Positions 722-21,159 of a stretch of 40,000 nt of DNA are shown piece by piece (position 1 is the stretch's first letter; each line of letters starts with the position of its first letter). The notes below the pieces were generated by a model, which saw only the letters and a list, made by a program, of their open reading frames with translations, ran no database searches and was not told where the DNA came from. The stretch spans positions 29,748 to 69,747 of the forward strand of contig JAIQEU010000008.1 in the NCBI GenBank assembly GCA_020073665.1. Reading direction: 5' to 3'. Both the position numbers and the translations under genes were made by a program. Source of the DNA: Terriglobia bacterium. GTDB lineage: Bacteria; Acidobacteriota; Terriglobia; Terriglobales; Acidobacteriaceae.

Positions 722-1299
722 CTCTCCTCCAGCAGACGACGTAGGGCTGGGTAAAGCTCGCGGATTTCTTCCGTAGGCAGAGCGTCGATACGACGGCGCA
801 GCCAGCTCCGACGGTCTGTCATTGATACGGGTTCCGTTGACAAAAAGATCGGATCCTCGTGGAGATCAGTAATCGGCGGCAGGCCGAAGTACGAGACTAT
901 GTGGCGAAGCGTAGAAGGTTGCGGTTCGAAAGAACCGTTGAGCCAGCGAGAGATTGTTGTTGGGTCGACATTTAACTCGCCCGCAAGGGACTTCTTGCCC
1001 CCATGACCAAGTGACCCCAACAAAAATCGTAGGTTCTCCCGCAAAACGTTGTGCCCCGCATAGGCGAAACCTTGAAATCGCAAGTTTTCAGTCTCATCGG
1101 CCAACTCAAAGGCCCCTCCGATTTTGCGCAGGTCATTGTCTGAAACCTGCTCATCCGCCAATAGCCCTCTAACAAGCGACTTCGCCGTTTGGGGGTCGAG
1201 TGAAGCGCGCCTCGCGAGCCACGAAGTCCACTCAGATCGCGGGACATCGTTCCGATGCAACAGGTATCGCACATTCACCGAAACGTGGTCGCTCATCAA
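718..1299 (-). CDS. Tandem helix-turn-helix (XRE-like) DNA-binding protein, putative regulator of the island
   Basis: 193-aa ORF. The second half, KKSLAGELNVDPTTISRWLNGSFEPQPSTLRHIVSYFGL, fits the XRE/Cro-type HTH pattern. The first half (VNVRYLLHRNDVPRSEW...DPQTAKSLVRGLL) looks like a degenerate second copy. It is translationally coupled to the downstream helicase. Confidence 0.6.
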   Translation of the reverse strand: MMSDHVSVNVRYLLHRNDVPRSEWTSWLARRASLDPQTAKSLVRGLLADEQVSDNDLRKIGGAFELADETENLRFQGFAYAGHNVLRENLRFLLGSLGHGGKKSLAGELNVDPTTISRWLNGSFEPQPSTLRHIVSYFGLPPITDLHEDPIFLSTEPVSMTDRRSWLRRRIDALPTEEIRELYPALRRLLEER

Positions 1300-5777: not shown

Positions 5778-7982
5778 TCAGATGATTTGGGTACTTCGAC
5801 GAAAAGCTGCATAATCGCGACTGGGTACAGCCACGTGATTCTTCAACTGCGCCGGAGTGGCAACTAGGATCAGCGCGTATTCGGCACGGGAGTACGCAAC
5901 GTAGAGTAGCCGTATGTCATCCTCTATTGCAAGATCCGCCGGCGGTTGCGCGCTCCGCGGGTACAAGTCGTTCCGAAATGGTGCCAGCTCATGCTCCAAT
6001 CGCTGAGCTGCGCCCACTCTGCCCTTATCACCTAGCTGCGCGACGATCACGAACGGAAACTCGAGCCCCTTGGATTGATGGATCGTCATTACGGGCAGAT
6101 ATCCCTGAGGGACGATGACGTCCTCATCTTCGTCGTCATCAATTCCTGCATCAACCAGATAACTTACAAACGTCTGGAAGAAACGCCCCATAAACGCCGG
6201 GTCTATCGACGTCCCTGTGGAATCGGCGCGAAGTGAATCCAAGTTAAAGCTATGGTAGCTGTCAAACAGCCTCGTGAGTTTACCAAGCCGCAAGTTCCTT
6301 GCAGGATCCTGTCGCCAAGTTCGGAACGGCTCCAGCGAAAGGATGCGGAAAAGAATCTCATGAAGAGTGACGTCCAGGAACTTGTCGGGCTTCGCGGCAC
6401 ACTCTTGCTGGAGTGCGACATTGCTCTTCGAAACATAATCGTCAACTTGGTGCCGCACGGTGGGGATGGCCGCGAGCGCCTGATCCAGTGCAGTGATCCA
6501 CGCATTCACGTCGGCGACCCAGTCGGGTGTGTTGCCGTTCGGCAAGCGAATGGTGGTGAACGTATGGTTCCAGTCGATGGTATGGACGAGTACAGCGAGG
6601 AGGCACTGAATCTCCTCGGCCTCCATGAAAGTCTTGGAGCGTGGGTTGTAGACAGGTATCCCTCGAGCGTTAAACGCGGTCAGGTAGGGGCCTGCATTGC
6701 CAGGCGAATCCTTGGCGCTCCGGACAAGAAGCACACATTGACTGTAGTCGGAGATCACACCATCGGCCATTAGGTGATCCCGAAGCAGTAAGGCGACCGC
6801 ATCCGGCAGGTGAGCCGCTCTCGCTCGCGTCAGCCAGCTAACAGCCGGATACGTGCCGGTGATCGCCGACTTCCCGATCACAGGCAACTTGCCTGGTGCG
6901 CGAACGCCGGGACGCCTCATCTCGACGAACGAGTCAATGTAGGCGTTGAAGAAACCAACGATATTCGAATGTGAGCGGTAGTTGTCAACGAGTTGGACCG
7001 GGGTTGGGGACACTCCGAATCCAGCATTGCACGCCTTGTCGAAGTTGACCATGCCGGCCACCGTCCCGCCACGGAACCGATACAAGGCCTGGTCATCATC
7101 CCCGACAACCGTCAGGTTATGTGGCGAACGTCCGGCTAGAGCGAGGTAGATCCGCTCCTGCAGCGGGTTGGTGTCTTGATACTCGTCCACCAGAGTATAG
7201 TTGAGGCAGGGTGTCTTCCCCACGACCCCATCCAGGAGTTGTCGACCTGTTGGTTGCTGCAAGAATTCCAAGAATCGCTGTTGCAGGTGAGCAAAATCAC
7301 AACGGTATCGGCTGTGCAACGCCTGAACGTATTGCTCATAAAGATGAGCAAGCACCGACCAATATCCGCCTGCGCTCTTCATTTGGGCGATATCGACCAC
7401 GTCCTCTACGATGTGGTTGAACAACTCTGCGCCCGCCTTGCCGCGTTTCCATTGGCTCGGAACGTAGTTCTTATCGCGCCAGTCCGGAACCACATAGTCG
7501 AAAAATCGCCAGAAGGCAACGTCCGGATGCTTGGTGATTTGGGAATAAAGGTACACGAAGATGTGCTGTTCGACCTGATCTAACAACCGAACGTTCTGGT
7601 ATCCCGGGTATCGGTACTCCTGAAGAATGTCATTGCACAGGCTATGAATGGTTCCGATTCGCAGATCCGACACGTCAATAGCAGTCAAGCTTGGCTCTGC
7701 AGTACGAAGCGCCGCCATGTAGGAGGCTAGACGATCGGCCAAGTTGCGAGCCGCTTTTACAGTGAAAGTGGTCATCAGGACCGATCGAGGATCGACCCCA
7801 TCCACGCAGAGCAGACGCAAGGCTCGCGTGACCAAGACCTCACTTTTGCCCGAGCCGGGTCCGGCAATCAGCCAGAGGGGACCGGATGGATGGTCCACCG
7901 CCGTGCGCTGGCTGCCGTTGAGTGGATACCCCCGGCCAGATGCGCCGTCAAGAATCTGATGAAAGCCCGCAAGCGGGATCAC
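5778..7982 (-). CDS. UvrD/Rep/PcrA-family SF1 helicase
   Basis: 734 aa. LIAGPGSGKSEVL (Walker A), LVDEYQDTNPLQ (II), VGDDDQALYRFRGG (III), TIHQSKGLEFPFVIV, LLYVAYSRAEYALILV (VI). The GTG start overlaps the stop of the upstream 716-aa gene (GTGA at 7979-7982). Confidence 0.9.
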   Translation of the reverse strand: MIPLAGFHQILDGASGRGYPLNGSQRTAVDHPSGPLWLIAGPGSGKSEVLVTRALRLLCVDGVDPRSVLMTTFTVKAARNLADRLASYMAALRTAEPSLTAIDVSDLRIGTIHSLCNDILQEYRYPGYQNVRLLDQVEQHIFVYLYSQITKHPDVAFWRFFDYVVPDWRDKNYVPSQWKRGKAGAELFNHIVEDVVDIAQMKSAGGYWSVLAHLYEQYVQALHSRYRCDFAHLQQRFLEFLQQPTGRQLLDGVVGKTPCLNYTLVDEYQDTNPLQERIYLALAGRSPHNLTVVGDDDQALYRFRGGTVAGMVNFDKACNAGFGVSPTPVQLVDNYRSHSNIVGFFNAYIDSFVEMRRPGVRAPGKLPVIGKSAITGTYPAVSWLTRARAAHLPDAVALLLRDHLMADGVISDYSQCVLLVRSAKDSPGNAGPYLTAFNARGIPVYNPRSKTFMEAEEIQCLLAVLVHTIDWNHTFTTIRLPNGNTPDWVADVNAWITALDQALAAIPTVRHQVDDYVSKSNVALQQECAAKPDKFLDVTLHEILFRILSLEPFRTWRQDPARNLRLGKLTRLFDSYHSFNLDSLRADSTGTSIDPAFMGRFFQTFVSYLVDAGIDDDEDEDVIVPQGYLPVMTIHQSKGLEFPFVIVAQLGDKGRVGAAQRLEHELAPFRNDLYPRSAQPPADLAIEDDIRLLYVAYSRAEYALILVATPAQLKNHVAVPSRDYAAFRRSTQII

Positions 7983-10129
7983 TTCGATACTCCTTTAGCT
8001 CCTTTAAGCGGCTCAAGGGCATCGGTCAGTGCATCTAATTCAGCGATTTCGAAGATGCCAGAGTACCCAGCTTCGAGTAGATTTATCTTGCTGTCAACGG
8101 GCCAGTCGCCGTCAACCACCAAGAAATGTTGGCCAGGATTTGATTCAGCTCCAAAACACGAGTCAACTTGACAACGCAAGTGGACAGACCTCAACCGAGA
8201 GGCTAGCTCTTTGACCTTGTGATCTATATTCTTGGCCCCAATAACAGCCTGAGTTTGTATGATCGCCCCAGTCATTCCGTCCTGCCCCGTCGTTTCCGTT
8301 GTCAATGCTGCCCGGCTCCATCCGCGCTTTACAGATAGGCCATTGAATGCCCCGCGCAGGGTCGGTCCCTTCTTGAGGGAGGGTAGGCTGCGCAGCAGTA
8401 GGAACGAGATCGGTTCAAGATCTGGAGCAGCAATGATTCTCATAGCCTTCTTGTACCGGTAGTTCACCTCGACCACAACTGGGTCAAGCGCCTTTCGTTT
8501 ACCAATCGCTTCCCAAACGCACTCCGCGAAGAGGGGCCAGATCGCTTCGTAGAAGTCAGATTCAGCAAGCTCAGTGCCGTTGGAGAAAAACTGGCCGACT
8601 GGGACGCCGGCGATCAAGTGACTCGTCAGCGCGCCGAGGTTGTTCATATAGGCGTAGGGTCTCAGCGAGTGCCCAAAAACGGCAGCGAACTTGGCGGGCA
8701 ACGCGGTCGTGATATGTTGCATGCTACCCAAGTCGTAGAACGCGAACAATACGTCTGGTGGCCAATTGTGCATGTCCTCCACGACTGACTGATGCGCTGG
8801 ACGTCGGCCGGGATCGAGGAGGTCCTCAGTCAACCTCGTGATGAAGGTTGCTTTGTCAGTGAGCCCAACGAAGCGTGATCCAACATACTCGACCTTCCGC
8901 CTAATCCGCTCCGGGTCGGCCAAATCTGCAAGTACCCAGTGCATCGAGTAAGCGGTGCGGTAGCTCGTGAAAAGGTCCTCTACCGCGCGCCGGAGGCTGG
9001 CAAGGTCTTCAGATTTTACGTAGCGAAGGCCCAATATGAACTGCTTTAGGTCTGGATTCCATTCCGCGTGCTCAAGACCCGCCGCGCCGCTCAGGAGGTA
9101 AACGGGCTTACGCTTAACCATCTGAACGGGTACGCTCGCCAGCTGGTTCCGCAAGGCGTCGATTTCCGCGTCGTCGACGCTTTTTGTTGCACCGAGTATG
9201 CCGCGCAAGGCCTTCCAAGAAAACCTAGGATTCGAGGTTAGAATCGACCAAAGAGCTGCATCAGGGTCGACACGGGATCCAAACATTCGGGCTACCAACT
9301 CACGGATTATGAACGCCTGCTGAAGCCCTTTCCTGTAACGTGTTTCCGTGGGATGAAGTGCAACAGATCTCTTACGTCCTTCCCAGCAAACGTCTTGGAG
9401 CTTCGTTATGGCGGCGGGGGTATATCGAGGACTTGGGCCGCTCGCGAGAGCTGTTTTGAGCAGCCTGGCTGCCCGGTCCACTCCTTTACGAACTGACTTA
9501 CTCTTCTTGTAAAGCGCCTCCCAAACAGAGTTGTAGACCTGGCGACGCTTCCTGGCGCTCCCCGGTACCGCTTCCGGAAGCGCAGAAGCGAATTCCTCTA
9601 TTGGCAAGTATTCCTGCGGAAACAGGATGCTTGAGTCAAAAGAAACGGCTAGCATCGATCCGTTTGCCGGGCTCCAGCCGTGTAACGGAATCAGTTCCTG
9701 CGAATCAACTACTCGACGTGGTTGTTGGTCCGGGTCTAACGCAACAAAGACGAGATTTATAGAAAGAAAATCTCGGCCAAACTGTGATTTATATTCGAAA
9801 TGGTCCTCCACCGTGCGCCAAAATTTTCTGTGGGAGTCTCTGGGGTTGCTCCAGTGAGTCACATGAAGACAGGCGACTGGGTGGCCTCCGTCTAGCACAA
9901 AGAAGTCAGGACTGTACCAAGGACCATATGGCAACCGTTCCCGCTCCGAGAAGGCATGGCACTCAACTGAGTGAAGGCAGATGCTCTTATCGACGTGACA
10001 CAATGCCTCCTGATGTTTTTCATATAGGTACTGGCGTCCAGAGCCGTCCGTCCACTGATCCCGATACCCCAGCTGTCTTAGCAGGAACTCGCCAAAGGCC
10101 TCGTAGGATCTCCCAGTGACGTCAGCCAC
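7979..10129 (-). CDS. Large hypothetical protein (716 aa), function unknown; weak nuclease-fold hints only
   Basis: Long uninterrupted ORF, translationally coupled to the UvrD-like gene. I recognise no NTPase, methylase or ParB motif. N-terminal SPDFFVLDGG...ACLHVTHW and C-terminal IIQTQAVIGAKNIDHKVKE are only vaguely restriction-endonuclease-like. Confidence 0.75.
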   Translation of the reverse strand: MADVTGRSYEAFGEFLLRQLGYRDQWTDGSGRQYLYEKHQEALCHVDKSICLHSVECHAFSERERLPYGPWYSPDFFVLDGGHPVACLHVTHWSNPRDSHRKFWRTVEDHFEYKSQFGRDFLSINLVFVALDPDQQPRRVVDSQELIPLHGWSPANGSMLAVSFDSSILFPQEYLPIEEFASALPEAVPGSARKRRQVYNSVWEALYKKSKSVRKGVDRAARLLKTALASGPSPRYTPAAITKLQDVCWEGRKRSVALHPTETRYRKGLQQAFIIRELVARMFGSRVDPDAALWSILTSNPRFSWKALRGILGATKSVDDAEIDALRNQLASVPVQMVKRKPVYLLSGAAGLEHAEWNPDLKQFILGLRYVKSEDLASLRRAVEDLFTSYRTAYSMHWVLADLADPERIRRKVEYVGSRFVGLTDKATFITRLTEDLLDPGRRPAHQSVVEDMHNWPPDVLFAFYDLGSMQHITTALPAKFAAVFGHSLRPYAYMNNLGALTSHLIAGVPVGQFFSNGTELAESDFYEAIWPLFAECVWEAIGKRKALDPVVVEVNYRYKKAMRIIAAPDLEPISFLLLRSLPSLKKGPTLRGAFNGLSVKRGWSRAALTTETTGQDGMTGAIIQTQAVIGAKNIDHKVKELASRLRSVHLRCQVDSCFGAESNPGQHFLVVDGDWPVDSKINLLEAGYSGIFEIAELDALTDALEPLKGAKGVSK

Positions 10130-10159
10130 GGTTTACACCTCCGGTGTGCCGTCGAAATT

Positions 10160-10481
10160 CTAGTAATTGGACCGGCAGCAAAATATCCCTGAGACTTGAC
10201 GATAGCAGCATTTGTCGCTGCCCAACACCTGAGTTCTTGGGCGAAGTCGCCAATGTTGGTTATCTGGTAGGTGTTGGGCAGCGATCAAATCTCTGAAAAT
10301 GTTGCACAGGACTTCGCGGAGGATCTTGCCCAATCGCGGGTAGGTACTGCAGACCACACCACAGATAGCCGAGGATGTCACCTGTCAGACTGTAGCTCGG
10401 AAGCTCGTAGGCCCGTTCCCGGACTCTTAAGTCGATGATGCGCCATCGATACACTCCGTTCAAAGGTATGTGATCTGCCAT
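10160..10481 (-). pseudogene. Possible frameshifted remnant of a second Cas4-like nuclease N-terminus
   Basis: In the 432-bp gap between herA-like and the 716-aa gene, one minus-strand frame reads ...ELPSYSLTGDILGYLWCGLQY. Residues 22-38 of the 4750..5769 nuclease read YSVTQDIVGFRKCPRQY (9/17 identical by eye). The sense then continues in another frame (YPRLGKILREVLCNIF, cf. FGTVLHQVLDRCH). Confidence 0.25.
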
Positions 10482-10561
10482 TTCGGCCCGGTGGTATTCT
10501 CTTTGCGATCCCATCCGGCGCCGATATTCTGCGTCGACGATCCGTAGACCTCCACTTGCGC

Positions 10562-12373
10562 TTACCGGGCATTGGTCCCTCGGAGGTCGTCGAAATCTAA
10601 GACCTGTGCGGGTAGCGCGATGTCTCGAAGGCTCGACGACAACAGCAGTTGGCCCTTATCAAGAACCTGTAACTCCTGCGCAAACCCGCCGATATCCGAG
10701 GATGCCGTCCGCACAGCCTCTCGACGTTCATCGGCATTGCCGAGAGCCATGGTGATCTGCGTATTGAGTTGTGTTAAGACACCAGGATCGATCTCAGACA
10801 CTTGTTGACTGACGATGCCTAGGCCGATGCCGAACTTCCGCCCCTGCCTACTGATGTCGCGGAAGATACTACCAAAGCGCATCCGCGCCGGGTTGAGCAC
10901 GCTCGGCGCCTCCTCGACCAAGATATGAACCAGAGGTAGCTCGTCCGGCGTTCGAACGCGTTCACCATCGAGATATGGGAGCTCGCCGCGGTCGAGGTGG
11001 GCAACGAGCGCCTGAGCGAGGCTCCGTTGGCCTACGCGCCCGTTCGCTTCATCGACTCCGAGGGCCACGAGGATCTCACTGCGGAGTCGGTCGGCGGAAT
11101 CTGCGAGACGAAGTGCCCGGCGAAGCGCGAAGAGCGAGCGCGCAACAACGGTGTTCAGGAGAAACTGCTCCAGCTCGCCAAGAAGAGTGGTATCGACCAC
11201 AAGAACACGGCCACGCTCAAGAGCGCACAGGATATCCGGCAGAAGTGAATCGTAAGTAAATCCCATTTCTGGATCGAAGCGTGAAACCAACCTGGTGTTG
11301 CCGTGCGTCAAGAACCCAAGCCGTCGCTCCACGGCCGAGATTGTGCCGGGCAAGTACTCAGTGTTGGCCTCACAGTCGCCGCCGACGGCACCTGAAAAAA
11401 GCTGTCCCACCCACCGTTCCCCATGTTCCGCGAAGAGCTGGCGCGCGAAGGCGATTTGCTGCTCGGAGAAATCCAGGATGCTGACAAGGTCATCAGGCGT
11501 GACTTCTGCCCTCGAGAGGCGTACGCGCGCCTCAAGGGGATCTTCGAGACCATCGCGAGCGGTGAGATAGTAGAAGGGCGCGACGAGGTCGGTGCGTTCG
11601 GCGTCTGAATAGGCACGCACGATGCCCCGGACACCGTCCGCGCCGCCGACTGCGGCGTGCCATGTGCGGAACTCATCGTGAGGATCGATGGCGAAGACCG
11701 AAGCCCTCGGCCCGATCGTGACGCCGGCATGGACTGCGCGGTTGTGCTCAAGCACCCCGTCGATCAGGACCATGATCAGGTTGCTCTTGCCGCAACCGGT
11801 GCGGCCAAAGACACCGATGTGGTGGGACAGGGCAGCCACAGGGAGGCGAACGGGGACAGCCAGCAGAGGCCGCTCACCCGCGAGCAGGTGGCCTATTACG
11901 AGCCCTGTGTCACCGAGCTGTGTCCGAAGAAGCTCGAACACCACTTGCCCTGATTCGGACCGGTCGGGGTCGACTCGGAACACGTCTGTCAGGTGCTGTG
12001 GGAGTCTCCGTGGTCGGTTGAACGACCACCCCTGCCGATCGCTTACATACTCTGCGTAGCCAAGGACCAAGCCTCGCAGCTCCACGAGCTGCTCCTCGGA
12101 CAAGTCCTCGGCGAAGTACGAGTCCGGCATTGTGAGCTTGTTGCGCGCCACATCGCTCATCTCCAACGTGCGGTTGAGGATGTTGGCATACTCGGTGGCG
12201 CGGAAGACGTAGACCCGGTCAGGCCCCCGCCGACACGGGAGGAGGAAGAGGTCACCGATGGCGACGTCCCCGTTGCGAGCGACAACCGTCAGTTGTGATG
12301 TGCTGCTCTCGGCTAGGACACCGAACCGCGGCCCCAGTGCTCGGACGAGTGCTTCGAGTGTTGCCAAACTCAT
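10562..12373 (-). CDS. herA: HerA-like (FtsK/HerA superfamily, DUF87-type) hexameric ATPase
   Basis: 603 aa. N-terminal HAS-barrel-like segment (VVARNGDVAIGDLFLLPC...VYVFRATEY). Walker A GVFGRTGCGKSN. Walker B LVHILVEEAPSV. GIGLGIVSQQVSEID. An AAAGGGGA SD lies after the nurA-like stop. Confidence 0.85.
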   Translation of the reverse strand: MSLATLEALVRALGPRFGVLAESSTSQLTVVARNGDVAIGDLFLLPCRRGPDRVYVFRATEYANILNRTLEMSDVARNKLTMPDSYFAEDLSEEQLVELRGLVLGYAEYVSDRQGWSFNRPRRLPQHLTDVFRVDPDRSESGQVVFELLRTQLGDTGLVIGHLLAGERPLLAVPVRLPVAALSHHIGVFGRTGCGKSNLIMVLIDGVLEHNRAVHAGVTIGPRASVFAIDPHDEFRTWHAAVGGADGVRGIVRAYSDAERTDLVAPFYYLTARDGLEDPLEARVRLSRAEVTPDDLVSILDFSEQQIAFARQLFAEHGERWVGQLFSGAVGGDCEANTEYLPGTISAVERRLGFLTHGNTRLVSRFDPEMGFTYDSLLPDILCALERGRVLVVDTTLLGELEQFLLNTVVARSLFALRRALRLADSADRLRSEILVALGVDEANGRVGQRSLAQALVAHLDRGELPYLDGERVRTPDELPLVHILVEEAPSVLNPARMRFGSIFRDISRQGRKFGIGLGIVSQQVSEIDPGVLTQLNTQITMALGNADERREAVRTASSDIGGFAQELQVLDKGQLLLSSSLRDIALPAQVLDFDDLRGTNAR

Positions 12374-12384
12374 TCCCCTTTCTA

Positions 12385-13596
12385 TCAGTGTCCGGTGGGT
12401 TGGGAGGCGTCCCGGAAGAGCGAGCGCTTGAGCCCGGCCCTCACGGCCTCGTCGATGAGCTGTTTCCGAAGCACCACACGCTCGGACTCTGTCAGTGATG
12501 CCCGGTCATGACCGGCCTTTACGGGATACGGATACCCGTAGCAGCGTTGGTCATGAGCACAGTAATCAAGGGACTGGAAGAGCTGTCTTACCTGCTCCTC
12601 GTCGCGCAGGTGTTCATCCCAGTACTTCGCGTCTAGGTCGACCCGCAGCACGGGCACGTTCCGATGAAATCGAACCAGGTAAGTTACCGCACCAGCCGGA
12701 GGCACTCGCCGGCCCTCCGTCGAGGGCAGGGCCCATCCCTCAACCTCCTCGGATGGGATCTTCAAATACCAGTGCTCAGGTGCCTCGGTCGCTCCTGTAC
12801 CGGCAACATCACGGACGGCATCTTCGATGAACCCTATTCCTGGGAGCCCGTGCGACTTCGACAGGCCAACGAGAACAACACCACGCTGTCGTGCCTCGAC
12901 ACAGCAGAGACGCTTCAGGTGCTCGTAGAACAAGCTCACGTCTCGACGCGTGACCAGCGGAAGTGTGAGAGTGCTGTCAAAAACGAGGATCCGACGAACC
13001 CCTGCCTCCTGAGGTGCGCGCCGCAGAAGGCGCAGGGCCATTGCCAACTCGCCCGTCGTCCGTAGCTGGATAGCTACATTCGAGGAGTCCGATGCGTTGG
13101 GCCGAATCATCTGCTCGACGAGCTGGTCGATCGGAGTGTGTCGTCCGCTGAACGCTTGCTTTAGCTCCTTGTAGTCTGAGGCACTCACCACCTCACGCAC
13201 TGCCATTCCACACAGCCGGGCGAATGCCGCGTTCCACGTATCAGAGCGGCGCTGTTCCGACTCGGGGATCCAGAATGCATCGAACAAGGCTGGAAGCCCA
13301 AGGTCTATCTCTCTTAGCCCATGTACGTTATCAGTCGTGTAGACGGATCCTTGGGCCACCGTCAGGTAGACGAATGAGTCTCCATAGGCCAGCGCAGGGA
13401 AGTCGCCCGAACCGTCGACGCCCGCGCATTGCAGGGCTTCTGACGTCGTCGTGTGTTCAAAGAAGTGCACGGACTCGCGCAATCGTCGCGCAGCATCATC
13501 TCCGAGCTTGGCCGACCCCTCCCATGCGCTCATTTCGTTGGCTACCTCAGCCAGTCGCGAGCGGACCGCGCTCCGCAGGTGGAGATCGAACTTCAC
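12385..13596 (-). CDS. nurA: NurA-like nuclease partner of HerA
   Basis: The ORF track gives 12385..13782, but its first 62 codons overlap the upstream gene. A GTG at 13596..13594 overlaps that gene's TGA (GTGA) and is preceded by GGAGGA. I take this as the start (about 403 aa). It contains a CAGVDGSGDF (DGS) motif typical of NurA and sits immediately upstream of herA-like. Confidence 0.6.
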   Translation of the reverse strand: MKFDLHLRSAVRSRLAEVANEMSAWEGSAKLGDDAARRLRESVHFFEHTTTSEALQCAGVDGSGDFPALAYGDSFVYLTVAQGSVYTTDNVHGLREIDLGLPALFDAFWIPESEQRRSDTWNAAFARLCGMAVREVVSASDYKELKQAFSGRHTPIDQLVEQMIRPNASDSSNVAIQLRTTGELAMALRLLRRAPQEAGVRRILVFDSTLTLPLVTRRDVSLFYEHLKRLCCVEARQRGVVLVGLSKSHGLPGIGFIEDAVRDVAGTGATEAPEHWYLKIPSEEVEGWALPSTEGRRVPPAGAVTYLVRFHRNVPVLRVDLDAKYWDEHLRDEEQVRQLFQSLDYCAHDQRCYGYPYPVKAGHDRASLTESERVVLRKQLIDEAVRAGLKRSLFRDASQPTGH

Positions 13597-15620
13597 GCTG
13601 AATCCTCCAGAAGCGACAGCTCCAGCTGCCGCCCGGGAAGTCCATGGGTGTCGCCGCAGAGCGCCTGATAGATCAGGCGATAGAAGACATAGGTGTTGTG
13701 GAAGCCGCGGCGCCGATTTCGGTTGTTGCCACGGAAGATGATGACTTCTACGCCGTCCTGCCGGCATATAGAGCAGTTGCACTGCTCCCAGGGACGTTTC
13801 TCCAAGGTGTTCCTGTATGGGCCGGACAAGTCTACGCGATCCGCGGTCACCAATCGGTCGTACTCGAGCAGGGCGTTCAGTGCAGCATCAAGCGATTCCT
13901 TGCGTGCCGCCCAAGCCCGCACAACTTTGAGCGCCGTCTGCTCAAGCCGCGCGATACTCCCGTCATCGAGGCCCGCATGCTCGCTCATCCGTTTCGCCCG
14001 GAAGCTCTTGCCTGCCTCAGGGATACGCAACGCTGCGAAGCTCTCATTTGGCATCACGTAGCTGGTCGTGGTGCGCATCCATGCTTGACGAAGAAACGAC
14101 GCGCTGTCCACCGACCTGACGCCCAGCTTGGCGAACACCGATAGAGCAGAAAGGCGAGCGAGTCCAAAAAGATGAATCCGCACCGATGGGGACACCACCT
14201 CATGAACGGCTCGTAGTGTTTCGATGATATCTGGCGTCGAGGAGCGAACTAGGCCGCCGAGTCCAATGTATTCGTAGCCCATCGCCACGTACTTCTTGGC
14301 GGCGGCAGCGTAGCTCTTGGGATCCCACCCCTGAACGGCACCGACCGGAGTCCAAGGGAGCTTCTCCTCGCGGTGTTTCTTCAGGAACTCAGCAGCGTTT
14401 TCGATGGTGAGTTCATACCGTGCCTTCTTATCGGACTCTGTGGCAGTGAGGATCAAGTGGTCCAGTGAGACACCAAAGTCGAAGTCAAGCCGCGTGTAGT
14501 AGTCGAGAACCTCGTCGGTCGTGTAGGGAGGCACCTTCTCGTTGATGTATCCAAAAGCACCACAGTCACCCATGATCGGGAACTCCCGTGGCACTCGAAG
14601 GTAACGGTGAACTCCAAGTCGATTGATGCGCTCCTTCTTCTTCTTGCTCTTTTCCGCGACTACCTTTGAGATCAGAATTCCGTCGTAGTTCGGCTCGGGG
14701 TATATCTGGTGGGCATAGACCTCGTTGGACCAGTCTCCGCAGCCACTAGAATGAAGGTCGTTCTCAAAATCGAAGTCCGGGTCCACCAAGTCATCCCATT
14801 CAGGGATGAAATACATCAGGTTTTCGCGCTGTGGCTTGTTCCACCAACCGGTTGGGATCTCAATAACCCGATCAACCGCAGGATTCGATCGGGCCTGTCT
14901 ACGAGGGTCCATCGGAGCCGCCGCATGCCTCACCTTAAGTAATTCAAGGACGTTGCTACCTTCCACGATGAGTTCTTGAAGTGTAATTTTCCCCGATGCT
15001 AAACCCTCGAGCACACGACTGACTACCTCACCCTTCAGACCCACCAAGCCGCAAGAGAATCGCTTCGCGTCCTGATTGCCCAATTCAATCTTGTGTAGCT
15101 TCTGGACAGAGGGCAGGCGCTTTGCAGCACGATGCCCGCAAAAAAAGATGCATGGACCGCCGATGTTCAAATTGCTGTCTAGTTCACATGCTTCAAGGTA
15201 GTCATCCCCGAGAAGCACGAAGATCAACTCTGCCGGCTTTGCTAATAAGTCATGGGTGTCTGAGGGAAGGTGCAGCCGGCGAGCCCAGGCCCTTCTTTGC
15301 TTAGTCGACATGCCAATAAAAGTGGCCTCATAGGGCGCCATTCTTCGAGAACCCGGGACCAGCCCGTAACCAGCAGAGACGATCCACGTCTCCGTCGAGA
15401 TGCCCGACTGGGAGTTGGACTCAACCGCCCGCAGGCCACGCAGCAGTCGTTGATGCTGCAATCCGCTGTACAGCTCAATGGCAGGCGTAAGAAACGCCCC
15501 AAGTTCGCTTTCGCGTGCGGCAACGTGTGCGGGTCCCTGTTCAAAATCGGCGAGCGTCAGCTGCCGATCGTGGCTAACACCCTTCTCTCCTGTACAGGAG
15601 GTGACAATACGGATGAGCAT
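13593..15620 (-). CDS. dpdA: Fusion protein: N-terminal ~270-aa domain of unknown function + canonical DpdA-type TGT domain with Zn site
   Basis: The C-terminal two-thirds carries IMGDCGAFGY, GVSLDHLIL, YIGLGGLVRS, HLFGLARL, RSVDSASF and the TGT zinc motif CNCSIC-x22-H (CxCxxC...H). The N-terminal part reads IVTSCTGEK...AIELYSGLQH...WIVSAGYGLVPGSRRMAPYEATF, which from memory recalls the YaaA/DUF328 or DUF6884 SAxYGL pattern (unverified). The track start at 15647 is TTG, so I prefer ATG 15620 (MLIRIVTSC). Confidence 0.8.
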   Translation of the reverse strand: MLIRIVTSCTGEKGVSHDRQLTLADFEQGPAHVAARESELGAFLTPAIELYSGLQHQRLLRGLRAVESNSQSGISTETWIVSAGYGLVPGSRRMAPYEATFIGMSTKQRRAWARRLHLPSDTHDLLAKPAELIFVLLGDDYLEACELDSNLNIGGPCIFFCGHRAAKRLPSVQKLHKIELGNQDAKRFSCGLVGLKGEVVSRVLEGLASGKITLQELIVEGSNVLELLKVRHAAAPMDPRRQARSNPAVDRVIEIPTGWWNKPQRENLMYFIPEWDDLVDPDFDFENDLHSSGCGDWSNEVYAHQIYPEPNYDGILISKVVAEKSKKKKERINRLGVHRYLRVPREFPIMGDCGAFGYINEKVPPYTTDEVLDYYTRLDFDFGVSLDHLILTATESDKKARYELTIENAAEFLKKHREEKLPWTPVGAVQGWDPKSYAAAAKKYVAMGYEYIGLGGLVRSSTPDIIETLRAVHEVVSPSVRIHLFGLARLSALSVFAKLGVRSVDSASFLRQAWMRTTTSYVMPNESFAALRIPEAGKSFRAKRMSEHAGLDDGSIARLEQTALKVVRAWAARKESLDAALNALLEYDRLVTADRVDLSGPYRNTLEKRPWEQCNCSICRQDGVEVIIFRGNNRNRRRGFHNTYVFYRLIYQALCGDTHGLPGRQLELSLLEDSA

Positions 15621-15688
15621 TGTTGGTCTATTTGGACATTTGAACAAGGTCTACAACACAAGGGCACAAACCTGCCCTAGATCACAAT

Positions 15689-16531
15689 TCACGCGCAAGT
15701 TTGTTCTTCAACAGCCAAGTCCTTGGCAACTGTGCCTTCGGGACGCACCCATTCCACACTCGCAAAAGCACTGTGGTTATGGATGCTTTCTTGGTTCAAT
15801 GCATCGATCCGGAACCAGGCGATTCGCAAATCATTTCTTAGCGCAAGAGCGACATTGCGCACCATGTCTTCGACGAAAACTGGATTATCAAACGCCTGCA
15901 TTGTCACGTGTCGTTCATCCGCACGTTTGAGAAGAGGATACACGGGAGCAGACGCAGACTGCTCCGCAATATCGATCAGCTCCTCAAACCAAACCAAAGC
16001 GAAGTTGTTTTCCGGATCACGAACGGTTTGCACCTCAATCGTAATGTAGCCACGCTGATTGTGGGCTCCGTAGTCGCTGATGGCCTTACTACAAGGGCAA
16101 AGACTCGTGACGGGCACTCGAACTCCAAAGACGAACTCGTCCTTCCCACCGTTAACCGCAGCATCAAAGGAGCATTCGTAGTCCATTAGTGCACTTGCAC
16201 CACTGACCGGGGCTCGGCGCTCCAGGAAGTAGGGAAACACGAGATGAATATGCGCACTCTCCGCATCAAGCTTCTTTCGCAGATCTCGGAGGATGTTGGG
16301 AACGGTACGCATTGTAATCTCGCCACGGTGCTCATTCAGAACTTCGATGAAGCGACTCATGTGAGTTCCCTTGAATTCGTGCGGCAGATTAACCGACATC
16401 TTCAGGACCGCCACGGTGTGCTGCTTTTGGTGTTCGCGATCAAGGACGACTATTGGGTACCTGAGCCCAGACACCCCGACCTTATCCAGAGCCACCTCAC
16501 GGCTATCACGTCTACCTTGGACATCTTCCAT
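15689..16531 (-). CDS. folE2: GTP cyclohydrolase I type 2 (FolE2/MptA family)
   Basis: 280 aa. LDKVGVSGLRYPIVVLD...VLKMSVNLPHEFKGTHMSRFIEVLNEH is the characteristic FolE2 N-terminal signature. The start shares one nt with the queD stop (TGATG). Confidence 0.9.
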   Translation of the reverse strand: MEDVQGRRDSREVALDKVGVSGLRYPIVVLDREHQKQHTVAVLKMSVNLPHEFKGTHMSRFIEVLNEHRGEITMRTVPNILRDLRKKLDAESAHIHLVFPYFLERRAPVSGASALMDYECSFDAAVNGGKDEFVFGVRVPVTSLCPCSKAISDYGAHNQRGYITIEVQTVRDPENNFALVWFEELIDIAEQSASAPVYPLLKRADERHVTMQAFDNPVFVEDMVRNVALALRNDLRIAWFRIDALNQESIHNHSAFASVEWVRPEGTVAKDLAVEEQTCA

Positions 16532-16896
16532 CAGTTCTCATCCTCTCCAGCGTAAATACATCCGCTGCTGCAGGTCTCACGGACGACAACGCAGCTCAGC
16601 AAAGGCAACGCCGACGTCAACCGCTTCCATATCCATCTTGACAAGTTCTCACTCGTAGGATTCGCCAGACCATCGATTTCATTGAGGTAGCTATGGTCCA
16701 ACTCATCATGTAATGGCTGGAACGCTTTCTTAATCTCCCCGAAATCTATCACCCATCCGACTGAATCTCTTACAGATCCACGCACGTGAATTTCGACACG
16801 AAATGAGTGCCCATGGAGTCGGCCACATTTGTGACCAGGAGGAAGATTAGGCAAGCGATGAGCCGCTTCGATCGTGAACTCCTTGAAGATTTCCAT
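16531..16896 (-). CDS. queD: 6-carboxy-5,6,7,8-tetrahydropterin synthase
   Basis: 121 aa. FTIEAAHRLPNLPPGHKCGRLHGHSFRVEIHV matches the QueD/PTPS His/Cys pattern. Confidence 0.9.
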   Translation of the reverse strand: MEIFKEFTIEAAHRLPNLPPGHKCGRLHGHSFRVEIHVRGSVRDSVGWVIDFGEIKKAFQPLHDELDHSYLNEIDGLANPTSENLSRWIWKRLTSALPLLSCVVVRETCSSGCIYAGEDEN

Positions 16897-16911: not shown

Positions 16912-17550
16912 TTACGGAATGTTTAAGAACTTGTGCGTCTGAAGACTAAGCCTCCAGCGCGGGTGCTCTAGGCAGTAACTCAATGCCAACCTTGTGTTGA
17001 CTTCTCGTCTAGCGCCGTCCATCGGCTGTAGAAAGAAATGTTGAAAATCCAGTTGCTCGTACAATTCCGGGCTCGCGTCGTCTTGAGGAAAAACAAGTTT
17101 CAATTCATGTCCGGAGCAAAGTTTCAGCTCCGTCCGCGCTTTAGGGCTGACGCATATCCAATCAATATCGGGACTTGCGACCTGTGTCCCATTGGTTTCG
17201 ATAGCAATCTCGAAACCCACTCGATGGAGAGCATCGATCAGAGGCTGATCCAATTGCAGAAGGGGTTCTCCGCCAGTGCACACGACAAATGGCTTGGAAA
17301 ATCCTCGGCGTTCCGGCCATGCCTTAGCGACTGCGGTGGCTAAGGCGTCCGGAGTGTCGAAACGACCACCCCCCGCTCCATCAGTTCCAACAAAATCCGT
17401 ATCGCAGAACTGGCAAACAGCTCTGACACGATCTTCTTCGCGGCCGGACCAAAGGTTGCAGCCCGAGAATCTGCAAAAGACAGCTGGCCGCCCGGTTTGT
17501 GCGCCCTCACCTTGCAGCGTGTAGAAGATCTCTTTTACCGTGTAGCTCAT
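16912..17550 (-). CDS. queE: 7-carboxy-7-deazaguanine synthase (radical SAM)
   Basis: 212 aa. [24 protein letters not shown]-x14-CQFCDTDF gives a Cx14Cx2C cluster motif, as in the Burkholderia-type QueE. Confidence 0.9.
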
Positions 17551-18266
17551 GCTGATACCTGGGCAAGACGATACCGGGTTGGATCAACAACCCCAGCTTC
17601 AAGAAAACCCTTTCTCCGTAACTGGCACGAGTCGCACAATCCGCATGCTTCTCCAAGTCCTGAAGGATCGTAGCAACTACTCGTGAGCGAATAGTCGATT
17701 CCCAGTTCAATCCCCTTCCGAATGATGTCAGCTTTCGAGAGATTAATCAGCGGTGCGTGGATCGTGACCCTTGTTGTCCCTTCTACTCCAGTTCTGGTCG
17801 CGAGATTGGCCAGTGTCTGGAACGCTTGGATAAACTCGGGCCGACAATCAGGATAGCCACTGTAATCAAGGGCATTGACTCCGATGAAGATATCGCCGCA
17901 TTGCAGAACCTCTGCCCACGCTAGGGCAAAAGAAAGAAAGATGGTGTTCCGCGCCGGCACATATGTGATCGGTATTCCTTCGGACATCTCCTCCAGTCGA
18001 CGCCCTTTGGGAACATCTATGTCGCTGGTCAGAGCTGACCCCCCAAAGGATCGCAAATCAATGTCGATGATCGTGTGTGCTTCAACTCCGAGCTTTACAG
18101 CGATTCTTCGGGCGGCCTCGATCTCAATCTCGTGTCTTTGCCCGTATCGAAAACTGAGTGCGTAGGGTCTGAAACACAACTCCTTAGCAACGGCTAACGT
18201 CGTCGTGGAATCTAGACCCCCGCTGAGCAGTACCACTGCGCGCCGATTTTGCATAACTCTCCTCAC
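17547..18266 (-). CDS. queC: 7-cyano-7-deazaguanine (preQ0) synthase
   Basis: 239 aa. [15 protein letters not shown]-loop. C-terminal Cys cluster [14 protein letters not shown] overlap with queE. Confidence 0.9.
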
Positions 18267-18508
18267 CCGACTCCGTTAAAGAGCTTCATTTGATCCCGGT
18301 CGGGTCCCTGAATTGGCTCCAATCGGTTTGCGAATGCACGGACTGCCTCAAATTCTGCAGCTGTAAAGACAGTCATCTTTCGGAACCGATGACCAAGTGG
18401 GATGTCCCCAGTCTTTCTCCATCGCCAGAGCGTCGTGCGCGACACCGAGAGCGATTCCTCGATTTCGCCTACCGTGAAGTATTGCGTTCCTTCAATTAGG
18501 ACTGGCAT
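18263..18508 (-). CDS. Small MerR/excisionase-type (AlpA/HTH_17-like) DNA-binding protein, first gene of the que operon
   Basis: 81 aa. [27 protein letters not shown] is a typical excisionase-family HTH. Its stop overlaps the queC start by 4 nt. Confidence 0.7.
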
Positions 18509-18867: not shown

Positions 18868-19446
18868 TTACGTACGCTGTTGGAGTGTCTTATGCACAGT
18901 CGAGGCAGACACGCCCAGCTGCGCTGAAATTGTGCGTATGGATGCTCCCGAAGCCCGGAGGCGAGCAATCCTGCTGCAATCCAGTGCTAGCGGCGGGCGG
19001 CCCAAGATCTTTCCCTTGATCTTCGCATTCCGCAGCCCAGCCCGAACACGCTCTTGAATCAACGAGCGTTCAAACTCCGCCATCGCACCAATGATCTGGA
19101 ACATCAGCCTGCCAGACGGCGTAGATAGGTCAAGATTGTCACGGAGGCTGACAAAAGCAATGCCATAGCTATCAAGGTCTGCGAGGGAGTTGACGAGGTG
19201 CTTGAGCGAGCGCCCGAAGCGGTCAACCTTCCAGCACAGCACGACGTCGAAATGCCGCCTGTGGGCATCGGCCATAAGGCGATTCAATTCGGGCCGAGAC
19301 TCTTTGGCTCCCGACACCCCGTTATCAACGTACTCCGCGAACACCTCCCATCCGCGCCGGGAAGCGTACTCCCGCAAATCTGATAACTGCATTTCCGGGC
19401 TTTGCCCGTTTGTTGTGCTGACTCGGGCATAAATCGCAACTCGCAT
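18868..19446 (-). CDS. Serine recombinase (resolvase/invertase family) with C-terminal HTH
   Basis: MRVAIYARVSTTNGQSPEMQ (catalytic Ser region), VVLCWKVDRFGRS and AEFERSLIQERVRAGL. C-terminal GASIRTISAQLGVSASTVHKTL HTH. The track start (19467) is TTG. ATG 19446 is preceded by GGAGGAG, so I use it. Confidence 0.9.
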   Translation of the reverse strand: MRVAIYARVSTTNGQSPEMQLSDLREYASRRGWEVFAEYVDNGVSGAKESRPELNRLMADAHRRHFDVVLCWKVDRFGRSLKHLVNSLADLDSYGIAFVSLRDNLDLSTPSGRLMFQIIGAMAEFERSLIQERVRAGLRNAKIKGKILGRPPLALDCSRIARLRASGASIRTISAQLGVSASTVHKTLQQRT

Positions 19447-19586
19447 CGATCTCCTCCTCGACGGCAAGTGACAGCTGTGCCGCTTTGCTCTTTGACTCTA
19501 CCGAGACGCGAATCCGTGGAGCTACAGGTCCAGGAAGCGATACGCCCCTAACCGACTAGCAAAACAGAACCGTAACTTGACCAAGA

Positions 19587-19862
19587 ATGCCGCTAGCAAG
19601 AAAAGTCGCCCTTCGGGTCAACGGTAGGCACGTGAACAAGGCGACGGTCCGCCGTAAAGAAAAGGAACTAGAGATGGTCATCGCGGACCCGCTTATAGGT
19701 GAGTTCGTGATTGACGAAAGTTTCACACTTGAACTACTGGAGCTTCTTCACCCGCACGAAATCCGAAGCAGACTGCCAAACGGCGGCTGGAGGAAAGTCT
19801 CGCTGCGAATATTGATTGCGCTGTTAAGGAGCGGAGTGGTTCGCGTAGCGCAGGAGACCTAA
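19587..19862 (+). CDS. Small hypothetical protein (copy A of a duplicated ~46-aa module); may start at ATG 19674
   Basis: 91-aa ORF. Its C-terminal 46 aa (FTLELLELLHPHEIRSRLPNGGWRKVSLRILIALLRSGVVRVAQET) recur at 20954-21094 with mostly synonymous differences, which argues that it is coding. Confidence 0.45.
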   Translation: MPLARKVALRVNGRHVNKATVRRKEKELEMVIADPLIGEFVIDESFTLELLELLHPHEIRSRLPNGGWRKVSLRILIALLRSGVVRVAQET

Positions 19863-20164
19863 TCGTGATAGCTGACGACCAGCCGTGCGCCCCGCGTCAC
19901 ACCTCCAGGTCTCAATTTCCGGATGGCGCGTAATCCGTCCGCAAAGCCTGGAAAGACCTACGAGACATTTGTAGTCGAACGATTTCTCAATAGGTTGCTT
20001 GAGCAGGTGGGCCTGGCATTTGAATTGTGCAACGCCGCCGGCATCCATTTGCCATTTTGCCTAATGTAAACGTGGGTGAAATGGAGTGTCCCGCTGAAGC
20101 TTGCGTTTGGATCGGGTACCCGCGTGCTGCCGGCCGGCGACCCGTGCTAACATCGTTGGCCGCC

Positions 20165-20905
20165 ATGGTTACCGTTGCTTCCGCCCGTGCACTCGTCTCC
20201 CCCGCGGCGCGCGACCGCAAGTTCTACACCGGCATCGCAATCGTGATGCTGTTCACCGCTCTGGTTGGCTTCTCGCGGACATACTTCCTCGGCCTGATCT
20301 CCGGGCACGCGACGACCATCACCGGCCGCGTTCCGAACGCGACCGTGCACCTGCACGCACTGCTGTTCATGTCGTGGCTGGTGCTGTTCATCGTGCAGAC
20401 GAGCTTGATCGCGACGCACCGCGTGAAAGTGCATCGCAAGCTCGGCTACTTCGGGGTGGCTCTGGCGGCGGCAATGATCGTGGTCGGCGGCCGCACCGCG
20501 GTCGAAGCGGCGCGGCTCGGCGCGGTCCCTCCGGGCGCCAAGCCGTGGAACTTCATCGCCATCCCCTTCGGCGACATCACGAGCTTCGCCATCTTCTTCC
20601 TCTGCGCCGTCCTCTGGCGCAACGACAAGGACAAGCACAAGCGCCTGATGATCCTCGCCTCCACCTGCCTGATGGCCGCGGCGCTGGTGCGCTGGCCCGG
20701 CGTCCTGGCCCTTGGAGCACTGGTCTCCTACGGCCTCATGCTAGTGTTCCCCATCGCCGGCGCGGTGTACGACCGGTGGTCACGCGGGCGCGTCCACCCG
20801 GTGTACTGGTGGGGGCTGGCGCTGCTCGTGCTGGGCGTCGCCGCGCGCGTCGCTCTGCTCGGCAGCCCGACTTGGGCGCACGCCACGCAGTCGCTGTTCG
20901 GCTAG
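20165..20905 (+). CDS. Polytopic membrane protein, unknown function
   Basis: The ORF 20027..20905 has a GTG track start. ATG 20165 (MVTVASARALV...) precedes about 6 hydrophobic segments (IAIVMLFTALVGF, LLFMSWLVLFIVQ, GVALAAAMIVVGG, FAIFFLCAVLW, ILASTCLMAAALV, LALLVLGVAARVAL). It is visibly more GC-rich than its flanks. Confidence 0.6.
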   Translation: MVTVASARALVSPAARDRKFYTGIAIVMLFTALVGFSRTYFLGLISGHATTITGRVPNATVHLHALLFMSWLVLFIVQTSLIATHRVKVHRKLGYFGVALAAAMIVVGGRTAVEAARLGAVPPGAKPWNFIAIPFGDITSFAIFFLCAVLWRNDKDKHKRLMILASTCLMAAALVRWPGVLALGALVSYGLMLVFPIAGAVYDRWSRGRVHPVYWWGLALLVLGVAARVALLGSPTWAHATQSLFG

Positions 20906-21094
20906 CCTGCACCTTCCTGCTACCTAGGTGATCCCATATCTGTCACCGATCATTTCACTTTGGAACTCTTGGAACTTCTGCATCCGGATGAAGTGCGACA
21001 AAGGCTGCCAAACGGCGGCTGGAGGAAGGTTCCGCTGCGGATACTGATTGCGCTGCTACGGAGCGGCACGGTCCACGTTGCGGAGGAGAGCTAA
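20906..21094 (+). other. Copy B of the small-ORF module; no ATG/GTG start, in frame directly behind the TAG of the membrane-protein gene
   Basis: Positions 20954-21094 translate to FTLELLELLHPDEVRQRLPNGGWRKVPLRILIALLRSGTVHVAEES*. By hand count this is 110/141 nt and 38/46 aa identical to copy A. There is no stop between TAG 20903-20905 and this segment. The only in-frame alternative start is TTG 20960. Confidence 0.35.
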
Positions 21095-21159
21095 TGTCGA
21101 TGGGCCATGACGACGGTTTCGCTCCCGTTGTAGACCTCATTTAACTTCCGGCTTGCCCG

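Follow-up and report, generated by a model that had tools for sequence, protein, structure and literature searches.

The DNA described here is a stretch of 40,000 nt from a Terriglobia bacterium (contig JAIQEU010000008.1, positions 29,748–69,747 of the forward strand), referred to throughout as the window; all coordinates are positions within it. The subject of this study is a run of three adjacent genes, all on the minus strand. The first (13593–15620) encodes a DNA-guanine transglycosylase of the DpdA type, the writer, which is fused to a DpdC-like (DUF6884) domain, a putative hydratase that would convert 7-cyano-7-deazaguanine (preQ0) to ADG. The second (12385–13596) encodes a NurA-family nuclease of 403 amino acids (aa) and starts at a GTG within a GTGA that overlaps the TGA of the fusion gene. 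The third (10562–12373) encodes a HerA-type hexameric translocase ATPase of 603 aa (PF01935), and its ATG lies 11 nt past the nurA stop. A first-pass annotation of this DNA had remarked that a deazaguanine writer joined to a HerA–NurA module was not a combination it knew as described, and full-text literature searches likewise returned no description of such a system.

The junctions are as tight as that annotation had claimed. The DpdA/NurA junction reads ctGGAGGAttcagcGTGAag on the minus strand. Its GTGA is shared between the GTG of nurA (13596–13594) and the TGA (13595–13593) of an upstream 684-codon open reading frame (ORF), listed mechanically as 13593–15647, and a GGAGGA lies 7 nt upstream of the GTG; the overlap at 13593–13596 is thus exact in the sequence. 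The NurA ORF ends at 12385, the herA ATG is at 12373, and the 11-nt spacer holds a Shine–Dalgarno sequence (aaGGGGa), as had also been proposed. For nurA, the GTG start is preferred over a longer 465-codon ORF, because a database protein 100% identical to it has 403 aa and its homologues (more than 100, of 398–410 aa) align from residue 1. The start of the fusion is most likely the ATG at 15620 (MLIRIVTSCTGEK), since its homologues open with M(K/R)ILV(I/V)TSCTGEK.

When ORFs were clustered across related loci, the trio emerged as part of a larger recurrent set, which comprises the preQ0 genes, DpdC::DpdA, NurA, HerA, a protein of 580–720 aa (716 aa in the window), UvrD, a PD-(D/E)XK nuclease, and a Hel308-like helicase with a small TGT-family protein.

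Identity of the NurA and HerA proteins

Direct family scans do not recognize the window NurA: neither the 403-aa protein nor the longer 465-aa ORF has a match in Pfam, NCBIfam, or PADLOC, and a profile built from the alignment of its family found nothing among the PDB sequences. The assignment was therefore based on a fold search and on searches with the family's own profile. An AlphaFold 2 model of the protein (pLDDT 88.6, pTM 0.88) was compared with the PDB using Foldseek, and the 13 best matches are all NurA (2ygk with an E value of 1.4e-9, 9x1n, 3tai/3tal/3taz, 7f6d, and 1zup), from Sulfolobus, Thermococcus, Pyrococcus, Deinococcus, and Thermotoga, with PIWI/Argonaute and RNase H ranking next; the TM-scores of these fold matches are modest (0.45/0.55). 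The first-pass annotation had made its NurA call conditional on profile searches, and these favor it for the family in two ways. PF09376 is matched by 17 of 24 relatives (best 1e-7), with the window protein itself below the Pfam threshold, and the family profile, run against 1.84 billion representative proteins, finds the archaeal NurA P0165 at an E value of 2e-52. P0165 is the first gene product of an archaeal nurA-herA-mre11-rad50 operon (locus L118; loci are referred to by such L numbers), and the window NurA is 30% identical to it.

Across 160 sequences of the family, conservation is 98% or higher at D61, E96, D207, H249, D320, H348/D349, and H363. D61 lies on strand 1 of the model, within the motif GVDGSGD, and is the Asp of the D-G-S motif, comparable to D49 of TkoNurA. 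Among these putative catalytic residues, it is the only one assigned with confidence. Four independent lines (the PF09376 matches of relatives, the fold, the match to the archaeal operon, and the conserved Asp) support placing the 403-aa protein in the NurA family. Viral contigs were also scanned for the family and gave no relatives, and hence no evidence of a phage-borne version.

HerA is recognized more directly. It matches PF01935 at 5e-15 (56.6 bits against a threshold of 23.2) and PADLOC HerA at 2e-19, several PADLOC HerA models fitting its C-terminal ATPase part. Its Walker A motif, GRTGCGKSN (G190-x4-G195-K196-S197), and its Walker B residues E487-E488 are at least 97% conserved among 41 sequences; the GCGKSN and DGS motifs that had been named as targets for mutation are thus both present. 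The window HerA shares 40% identity with the archaeal HerA of L118 across 593 aa, and its best PDB sequence match (6.5e-15) is HerA from the HerA–NurA complex of T. kodakarensis. The NCBIfam HerA equivalog models score far below their cut-offs, and we therefore place the window HerA in a distinct clade.

The writer fusion

The DpdA domain occupies residues ~278–660 of the fusion and is an orthodox member of its family, scoring 436.5 bits against the NCBIfam equivalog NF041059 (cut-off 200), 1.8e-119 against the PADLOC DpdA model, and 2e-78 in a phmmer comparison with DpdA from S. Montevideo (structure 7UI4). In the alignment with 7UI4, the equivalents of Asp95 (MGDCGAF), Asp130 (SLDH), and Asp256 (VDSAS) are all kept; these residues serve as general acid/base, in base recognition, and as nucleophile, respectively (PMC10164549). 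The zinc motif CxCxxC...H (C614, C616, C619, and H641) is invariant in 13 aligned fusions, across which the fused architecture itself is conserved.

The DUF6884/DpdC-like domain spans residues ~10–180, with 34.5 bits against a cut-off of 30 and a PADLOC DpdC match at 5.9e-9. It carries the CxxxK and SAxxG motifs given for DUF6884 by the Pfam curators (PMC11701544), and its sequence thus marks it as a domain of the DpdC type, a putative preQ0-to-ADG hydratase. In L003 (446–1783), a fusion of 445 aa has the reverse order, with an N-terminal TGT and a C-terminal DUF6884 domain (8e-42), and is located 24 nt upstream of NurA. It represents a second, independent solution for joining a writer to a DpdC-type domain.

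Conservation of the gene linkage

Whether the linkage holds in other genomes, the check put forward in the first-pass annotation, was addressed with a NurA-seeded scan using one genome per species and with a set of metagenome loci seeded with the fusion. The former gave 28 loci from Pseudomonadota, Planctomycetota (Singulisphaera), Myxococcota, Verrucomicrobiota, Acidobacteriota, Cyanobacteriota, and Bacillota (Paenibacillus tyrfis and Ca. Avispirillum); in all, the system is spread over at least seven bacterial phyla as well as plasmids and metagenomes. The linkage is conserved. HerA is encoded downstream of NurA in 40 of the 40 loci, from all sets, that have room for it, within 4 kb and usually at a spacing of −5 to +13 nt. 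DpdC::DpdA lies directly upstream of NurA in 17 genome loci, at −11 to +13 nt in 15 of them, and the overlaps between the DpdA stop and the NurA start among the genome loci include −1, −4, −8, and −11. Of the 54 fusion-seeded metagenome loci with at least 1.3 kb of downstream sequence, 23 have NurA immediately after the fusion.

The adjacency of writer and NurA persists down to ~27% NurA identity (L121). The protein P0174 even scores below the archaeal NurA against the family profile, yet its locus reads HTH-QueD-QueC-QueE-FolE2-DUF6884::TGT-NurA-HerA-UvrD, with a 4-nt overlap of NurA and HerA. Insertions of 1.2–3.4 kb split the coupled genes in a few loci that look intact (L001, with 1167 nt between DpdA and NurA, and L015 and L031, between NurA and HerA).

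These data bear on the simplest account of the pair, namely that NurA–HerA is a housekeeping or island-borne module for end-resection repair, functionally unconnected to the deazaguanine genes. The close relationship to the archaeal nurA-herA-mre11-rad50 repair operon and the PGAP name of one homologue, "DNA double-strand break repair nuclease NurA", would both fit such a role. It is nevertheless most improbable, because the pair is linked to DpdC::DpdA or to the small TGT over at least seven phyla, plasmids, and metagenomes and through the whole depth of the bacterial family, and because stop/start overlaps are conserved. Mre11/Rad50 is moreover found in no bacterial locus, and the family counts just 124 representative clusters, many being fragments, among the 1.84 billion and is patchily distributed, as expected of a mobile defense gene rather than a repair gene.

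Architectures around the same fusion

Comparison of plasmid records and metagenome loci reveals at least three types of gene set around the DpdC::DpdA fusion. The first (type B) combines it with a ~280-aa protein and DpdB (DGQHR), together with DpdJ/DpdK-like proteins and/or UvrD and PD-(D/E)XK, and is found on Allocoleopsis pMIC7113.07 and Scytonema plasmid1 and in L085, L094, L095, and L113. The second (type P), found on pART37 of Paenibacillus sp. 37 and in 11 metagenome loci, has a small TGT, a 246-aa protein, a KAP-family P-loop NTPase, a 935-aa protein, DpdK, and DpdJ. The third (type N), that of the window, has NurA-HerA-716-UvrD-PD-(D/E)XK, the Hel308-like helicase, and the small TGT.

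The components are sorted sharply among these types. Tblastn with two DpdB references, which detect DpdB in six other loci, gives DpdB in 0 of 69 NurA/HerA loci, and DpdJ/DpdK references likewise match none of the 69. The small TGT is present in 0 of the 6 DpdB loci and in all 12 KAP loci, none of which has NurA/HerA or DpdB. From these co-occurrence counts, we conclude that the small TGT with an NTPase, either Hel308-like or KAP, alternates with DpdB. NurA–HerA, never found together with DpdJ/DpdK in 69 loci, alternates in turn with these two proteins, both encoded in the canonical Dpd restriction operon (PMC10164549; PMC12235509). The UvrD and PD-(D/E)XK pair shuffles as a module among Dpd-like loci. 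Dpd-like systems thus appear to be assembled from interchangeable writer-helper and killer modules.

The first-pass annotation had placed foremost the idea that HerA, with or without NurA, replaces DpdB, serving as a motor that loads on or remodels DNA for base exchange by DpdA, with NurA as a structural partner or nicking helper. There is a case for it: canonical DpdA requires the ATPase DpdB (PMC10164549), DpdB is missing from the 69 NurA/HerA loci and, as had been claimed, gives no PADLOC match in the 15 ORFs scanned from the window, the DpdA-NurA-HerA junctions overlap or measure at most 13 nt in most loci, and the adjacency is kept with the TGT::DUF6884 writer of L003 and at the low NurA identity of L121. 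The architectures nonetheless make this the weaker reading, and we consider it rather unlikely. Fusions of the same clade exist with neither DpdB nor HerA (the type with a KAP NTPase and small TGT), the cyanobacterial plasmids described below do not have the writer beside NurA–HerA, and the nuclease residues of NurA are strongly conserved. Phage DpdAs are not known to need DpdB. The phage DpdA gene sets given in PMC6884629 come with no mention of DpdB. The argument that the translational unit encodes no ATPase other than HerA is correct for the trio and fails for the system as a whole: UvrD is encoded further along the same strand, and a better-placed candidate exists in the Hel308-like helicase, which is translationally coupled to a second TGT.

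Complete cyanobacterial plasmids are informative about how far the modules can be separated. On those of Picosynechococcus and Nostoc, DpdC::DpdA adjoins a block of Hel308-like helicase, small TGT, and second helicase, while a MazG-NurA-HerA-716 block lies elsewhere on the replicon, followed on the Picosynechococcus plasmid by UvrD and PD-(D/E)XK with toxin–antitoxin genes inserted. Cyanobacterial loci had at one stage been candidates for NurA–HerA without DpdA; this was rejected, as the complete plasmids carry DpdC::DpdA on the same replicon at a distance of more than 10 kb. The system tolerates splitting, and these plasmid loci behave as defense-island hot spots.

Other insertions were seen on the same plasmids. 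The Nostoc plasmid pNOS3756_2 (L031, 15351–18677) carries a restriction endonuclease/LlaJI cassette between NurA and HerA, and in the Picosynechococcus plasmid (L030) toxin–antitoxin pairs and an AbiEii gene are inserted among the system genes. The MazG in these blocks is a small nucleotide pyrophosphohydrolase. Its gene immediately precedes that of NurA in cyanobacteria and that of DpdC::DpdA in several further loci (L029 9585–9827, L030 13615–13839, L031 13569–13886, L034 12592–12909, L043, L054, L098, and L100). It also occurs in a DpdB-type locus and is absent from the window. MazG could clean the deazaguanine nucleotide pool.

Proposed role of NurA–HerA

On balance, we lean towards the view that NurA–HerA is a restriction effector, which destroys DNA within a modification-dependent restriction system. 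It is also somewhat more probable than otherwise, in our judgment, that the region forms the core of a restriction–modification island that is Dpd-like, lacks DpdB, and is inserted at a tRNA-Ser gene. The proposed assignment of NurA–HerA to the restriction arm rests on its alternation with DpdJ/DpdK, its separation from the writer on plasmids, the conserved NurA active site, and the precedent of T. kodakarensis. There, HerA–NurA degrades the two strands of double-stranded DNA (dsDNA) from the ends in an ATP-dependent manner, the dsDNA being threaded through the HerA hexamer into the NurA dimer, and the authors favor antiviral defense over end resection (PMC12977600). With putative catalytic residues at least 98% conserved, NurA is unlikely to be a mere loader. 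The mobile context consists of a tyrosine integrase at the tRNA-Ser gene, a resolvase, and the plasmid copies.

By homology, FolE2, QueD, QueE, and QueC make preQ0. In the mechanism that we propose, the fusion would mark host DNA with dPreQ0/dADG, and NurA–HerA, together with the 716-family protein and UvrD/PD-(D/E)XK, would processively degrade DNA that lacks the mark. The ATP-dependent helper role of DpdB would more likely fall to the Hel308-like helicase coupled to the small TGT than to HerA. The DpdA–NurA overlap and the 11-nt spacer that follows nurA could ensure that the protective writer is made first and the nuclease never without it, as in operons where the modification gene precedes the restriction gene, and the coupling of DpdA, NurA, and HerA may also fix their stoichiometry. 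The translational coupling of DpdA and NurA is thus best read as expression logic, and not as evidence of a shared catalytic cycle.

An alternative would be an integrated machine. DNA drawn along by HerA would pass the writer as well as NurA, a single translocating complex would mark hemimodified or self DNA or else degrade unmarked DNA, and NurA–HerA would be loader and effector at once. The tight translational coupling of the three genes in most loci would fit this, NurA/HerA excludes both DpdB and DpdJ/DpdK, and the 716-family protein, which travels with HerA, could be an adaptor. Nevertheless, the cyanobacterial arrangement parts the writer from NurA–HerA, and the loci with 1.2–3.4 kb between the coupled genes (L001, L015, and L031) look intact; we hold such a machine to be unlikely. 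Its structural version, in which HerA–NurA docks on the fusion and the 716-family protein to give one ring translocase that marks or shreds DNA, with HerA as the equivalent of the ATPase step of DpdB, seems to us equally doubtful.

Several points weigh against the restriction-effector reading. The tightness of the DpdA–NurA junction is kept in most non-cyanobacterial loci, even with the reverse-order writer of L003, and could mean that the writer and NurA–HerA cooperate physically. DpdB, too, co-occurs with NurA/HerA in 0 of 69 loci, so that a restriction arm is not cleanly separated from a function needed when DpdB is missing. The first-pass annotation had offered degradation of unmodified DNA as its second choice; this fits better, since in related loci NurA–HerA takes the place of DpdJ/DpdK and co-occurs with them in 0 of 69, while the DpdB count leaves a role in modification standing. 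NurA–HerA depends on DNA ends, yet there is no obvious endonuclease for the first cut, for which PD-(D/E)XK and the 716-family protein are candidates. Finally, the metagenome set consists of the 80 best-scoring relatives of the window fusion and is not a random sample, and locus flanks extend to at most 10 kb with many short contigs, which makes absences less than absolute.

Comparison with known systems

To our knowledge, Dpd is the only restriction–modification system based on DNA base exchange. It raises two questions: what powers its writer, and by what route its restriction side recognizes and kills unmodified DNA. The window shares with canonical Dpd of S. Montevideo a DpdA orthologue with identical catalytic Asp residues, a DpdC-type domain, preQ0 genes, a mobile island, and a restriction side with several helicases and a nuclease. 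It differs in that DpdB is lacking, DpdC is fused to DpdA, and DpdD–K are missing, weak generic helicase similarity to the DpdF/DpdE models being all that was found for DpdD–K in the window. The canonical restriction genes include the SNF2 protein DpdE, DpdF, DpdG–I, the YprA-type DpdJ, and the PLD protein DpdK, whereas the restriction side in the window consists of NurA, HerA, the 716-family protein, UvrD, and PD-(D/E)XK, with the small TGT and Hel308-like helicase added. DpdB accompanies 92% of dpdA genes (PMC5699537), and the NurA–HerA type would sit among the remaining 8%. The dpd survey made with GATOR-GC required both dpdA and dpdB (PMC12235509); surveys of this kind, like the current PADLOC rules for Dpd, will miss it. 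We read the window as carrying a DpdB-less, Dpd-like system with a probable NurA–HerA restriction arm and a helicase-coupled second TGT on the writer side. Keeping an orthodox DpdA while replacing DpdB and DpdD–K with enzymes of well-understood biochemistry, it offers a simpler and more easily dissected model for the questions raised by Dpd.

The archaeal HerA–NurA systems (Sulfolobus, Pyrococcus, and T. kodakarensis; also Deinococcus) have the same protein families, gene order, tight linkage, and NurA fold, as well as a presumed ATP-driven feed of dsDNA into the NurA dimer (PMC12977600). In contrast to them, the window pair is without Mre11/Rad50, resides on a mobile island or on plasmids, and has a DNA base-modification enzyme linked to it. 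Bacterial NurA–HerA thereby gains a concrete biological context, which supports the antiviral proposal made for the archaeal complex.

BREX-related capture (BRC; PMC12839542) is the only published case we found in which HerA/FtsK and a TGT-family protein co-occur in a proposed defense locus, and they do so in a subset of its loci; like the window, BRC has no DpdB, and it also lacks DpdC. It is built on PglZ, DUF6079 (BrxC-like), a STAND NTPase, DUF4007, and GNAT (PMC12839542), and Pfam and PADLOC scans of the window genes detected none of PglZ, DUF6079, STAND NTPase, DUF4007, or GNAT. Conversely, BRC is without NurA, UvrD, a DpdC domain, and preQ0 genes, and its HerA is DndH-like rather than archaeal-like. 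An earlier survey of HerA/FtsK "capture" systems mentions neither TGT nor Dpd (PMC10853773).

Other defense systems share single features with the window. SIR2–HerA and DUF4297–HerA also place an effector enzyme next to a HerA hexamer in bacterial defense, but they are two-gene systems with no DNA-modification module, and the effector in the window is NurA; neither SIR2 nor DUF4297 was matched among the window genes scanned with Pfam and PADLOC. BRIGADE, a haloarchaeal Dpd-like system, likewise combines a deazaguanine cluster with a non-canonical restriction set, which there consists of YprA-family helicases and PLD or PD-(D/E)XK nucleases; it is confined to haloarchaea and has no HerA/NurA (PMC12458937). 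AddAB/RecBCD pair the same activities as the UvrD-family helicase and following PD-(D/E)XK nuclease of the window, where, unlike in those complexes, the genes are separate and small, with no Chi-recognition or AddB-like partner identified.

Remaining genes and the mobile island

Upstream of the fusion gene, the minus-strand operon is headed by a small protein of the HTH_17 type (excisionase/MerR-like helix-turn-helix; 18263–18508, Pfam HTH_17 6.7e-7), homologues of which precede queC in L016, L039, L068, L074, L121, and L122. A sigma-70-like match (TTGAAT-16-TATAAT, 18612–18585) lies just upstream; since terminator and promoter scans did no better on the sequence than on shuffles, they are not used as evidence. 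The four preQ0 genes follow, all on the same strand: QueC, the preQ0 synthase (17547–18266, PF06508 1e-75); QueE, the radical SAM 7-carboxy-7-deazaguanine synthase (16912–17550, TIGR04508 with 352 bits against a cut-off of 240); QueD, 6-carboxytetrahydropterin synthase (16531–16896, PF01242 5e-36); and FolE2, GTP cyclohydrolase IB (15689–16531, PF02649 1.5e-94).

Beyond herA, still on the minus strand, lies the gene for the 716-aa protein (7979–10129), a member of the "c6/716" family with no known domain, which normally follows herA and does so in 22 of 32 loci by BLAST. The protein has no match in Pfam, NCBIfam, PADLOC, or the PDB sequences, and although its AlphaFold 2 model is of high quality (pLDDT 90.2), this too yields no significant PDB fold match. 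Its homology to the ~584-aa "c6" protein, which is found after herA elsewhere, extends from end to end (hhalign 99.7%, E value 3e-25). An N-terminal invariant pattern resembling PD...(E/D)...K was considered as a sign of a nuclease, judged insufficient, and the protein was left unnamed. The UvrD/PcrA-type superfamily 1 helicase (5778–7982, minus strand; PF00580 1.4e-49, and PF13361) has counterparts in 16 of the 28 NurA-seeded genome loci, and its partner, the PD-(D/E)XK nuclease (4750–5769, minus strand; PF12705 7.6e-14), follows UvrD in most loci.

Between herA and the 716-aa gene is a non-coding scar (10130–10561, minus strand), in which tblastx detects matches with the beginnings of the PD-(D/E)XK genes from 12 loci as well as with 3′ ends of herA. 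Two relics can be distinguished within its 430 nt. One, at ~10344–10439, corresponds to the N-terminus of the PD-(D/E)XK gene of another lineage (50–79% aa identity, 12 loci), and the second, at ~10155–10214, is a short herA 3′ end. The present 716-UvrD-PD-(D/E)XK module is 57–63% identical to those of L015/L087 and ~27% to most loci. The scar looks like the trace of a swap in which a c6-UvrD-PD-(D/E)XK module was exchanged for the present one.

The Hel308/Ski2-like superfamily 2 helicase (1413–3809; NF002654 1e-100, with DEAD, Helicase_C, HHH_5, and SWIM domains) is encoded on the plus strand, convergent with the main operon. The second, small TGT-family protein of 303 aa (3806–4717, plus strand; PF01702 2e-23) follows it, with an ATG that overlaps the helicase stop (ATGA) and a GGAGGA upstream (junction ggaggaagaagATGA). 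The two genes are adjacent in L001–L004, L013, L022, L029, L031, L032, L037, L057, L075, L081, and L111, usually on the strand opposite to the rest of the system. The small TGT is without the zinc subdomain and keeps the equivalents of D102, D156, and D280 of Z. mobilis TGT (D71, D124, and D242, conserved among 15 sequences). With the Hel308-like helicase, it may be the real substitute for DpdB, or a partner subunit of DpdA.

Divergent from this pair is a gene for an Xre-type HTH protein (718–1299, minus strand; HTH_19/HTH_3), a possible regulator. Homologues adjoin the Hel308-like gene in L004, L022, and L029, and it is less securely part of the system.

At the other end of the system, a resolvase is encoded at 18868–19467, and a tyrosine integrase (32240–33376) adjoins tRNA-Ser(GGA) (33487–33576). 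To the left of the tRNA, the whole region (at least 33 kb) has the appearance of an island inserted at tRNA-Ser; a search of the window for another att copy matching the 3′ end of tRNA-Ser found none. Just beyond the resolvase, a 143-nt direct repeat of 78% identity (19721–19863 and 20953–21095) flanks a GC-rich ORF of 292 codons with no annotation (20027–20905). Further along, the minus strand at 25514–28069 encodes an 851-aa helicase-C protein with weak DpdF/DrmD-like matches, which has a homologue in the Singulisphaera locus L002 and may be part of a second defense system or a further component of the one described here.

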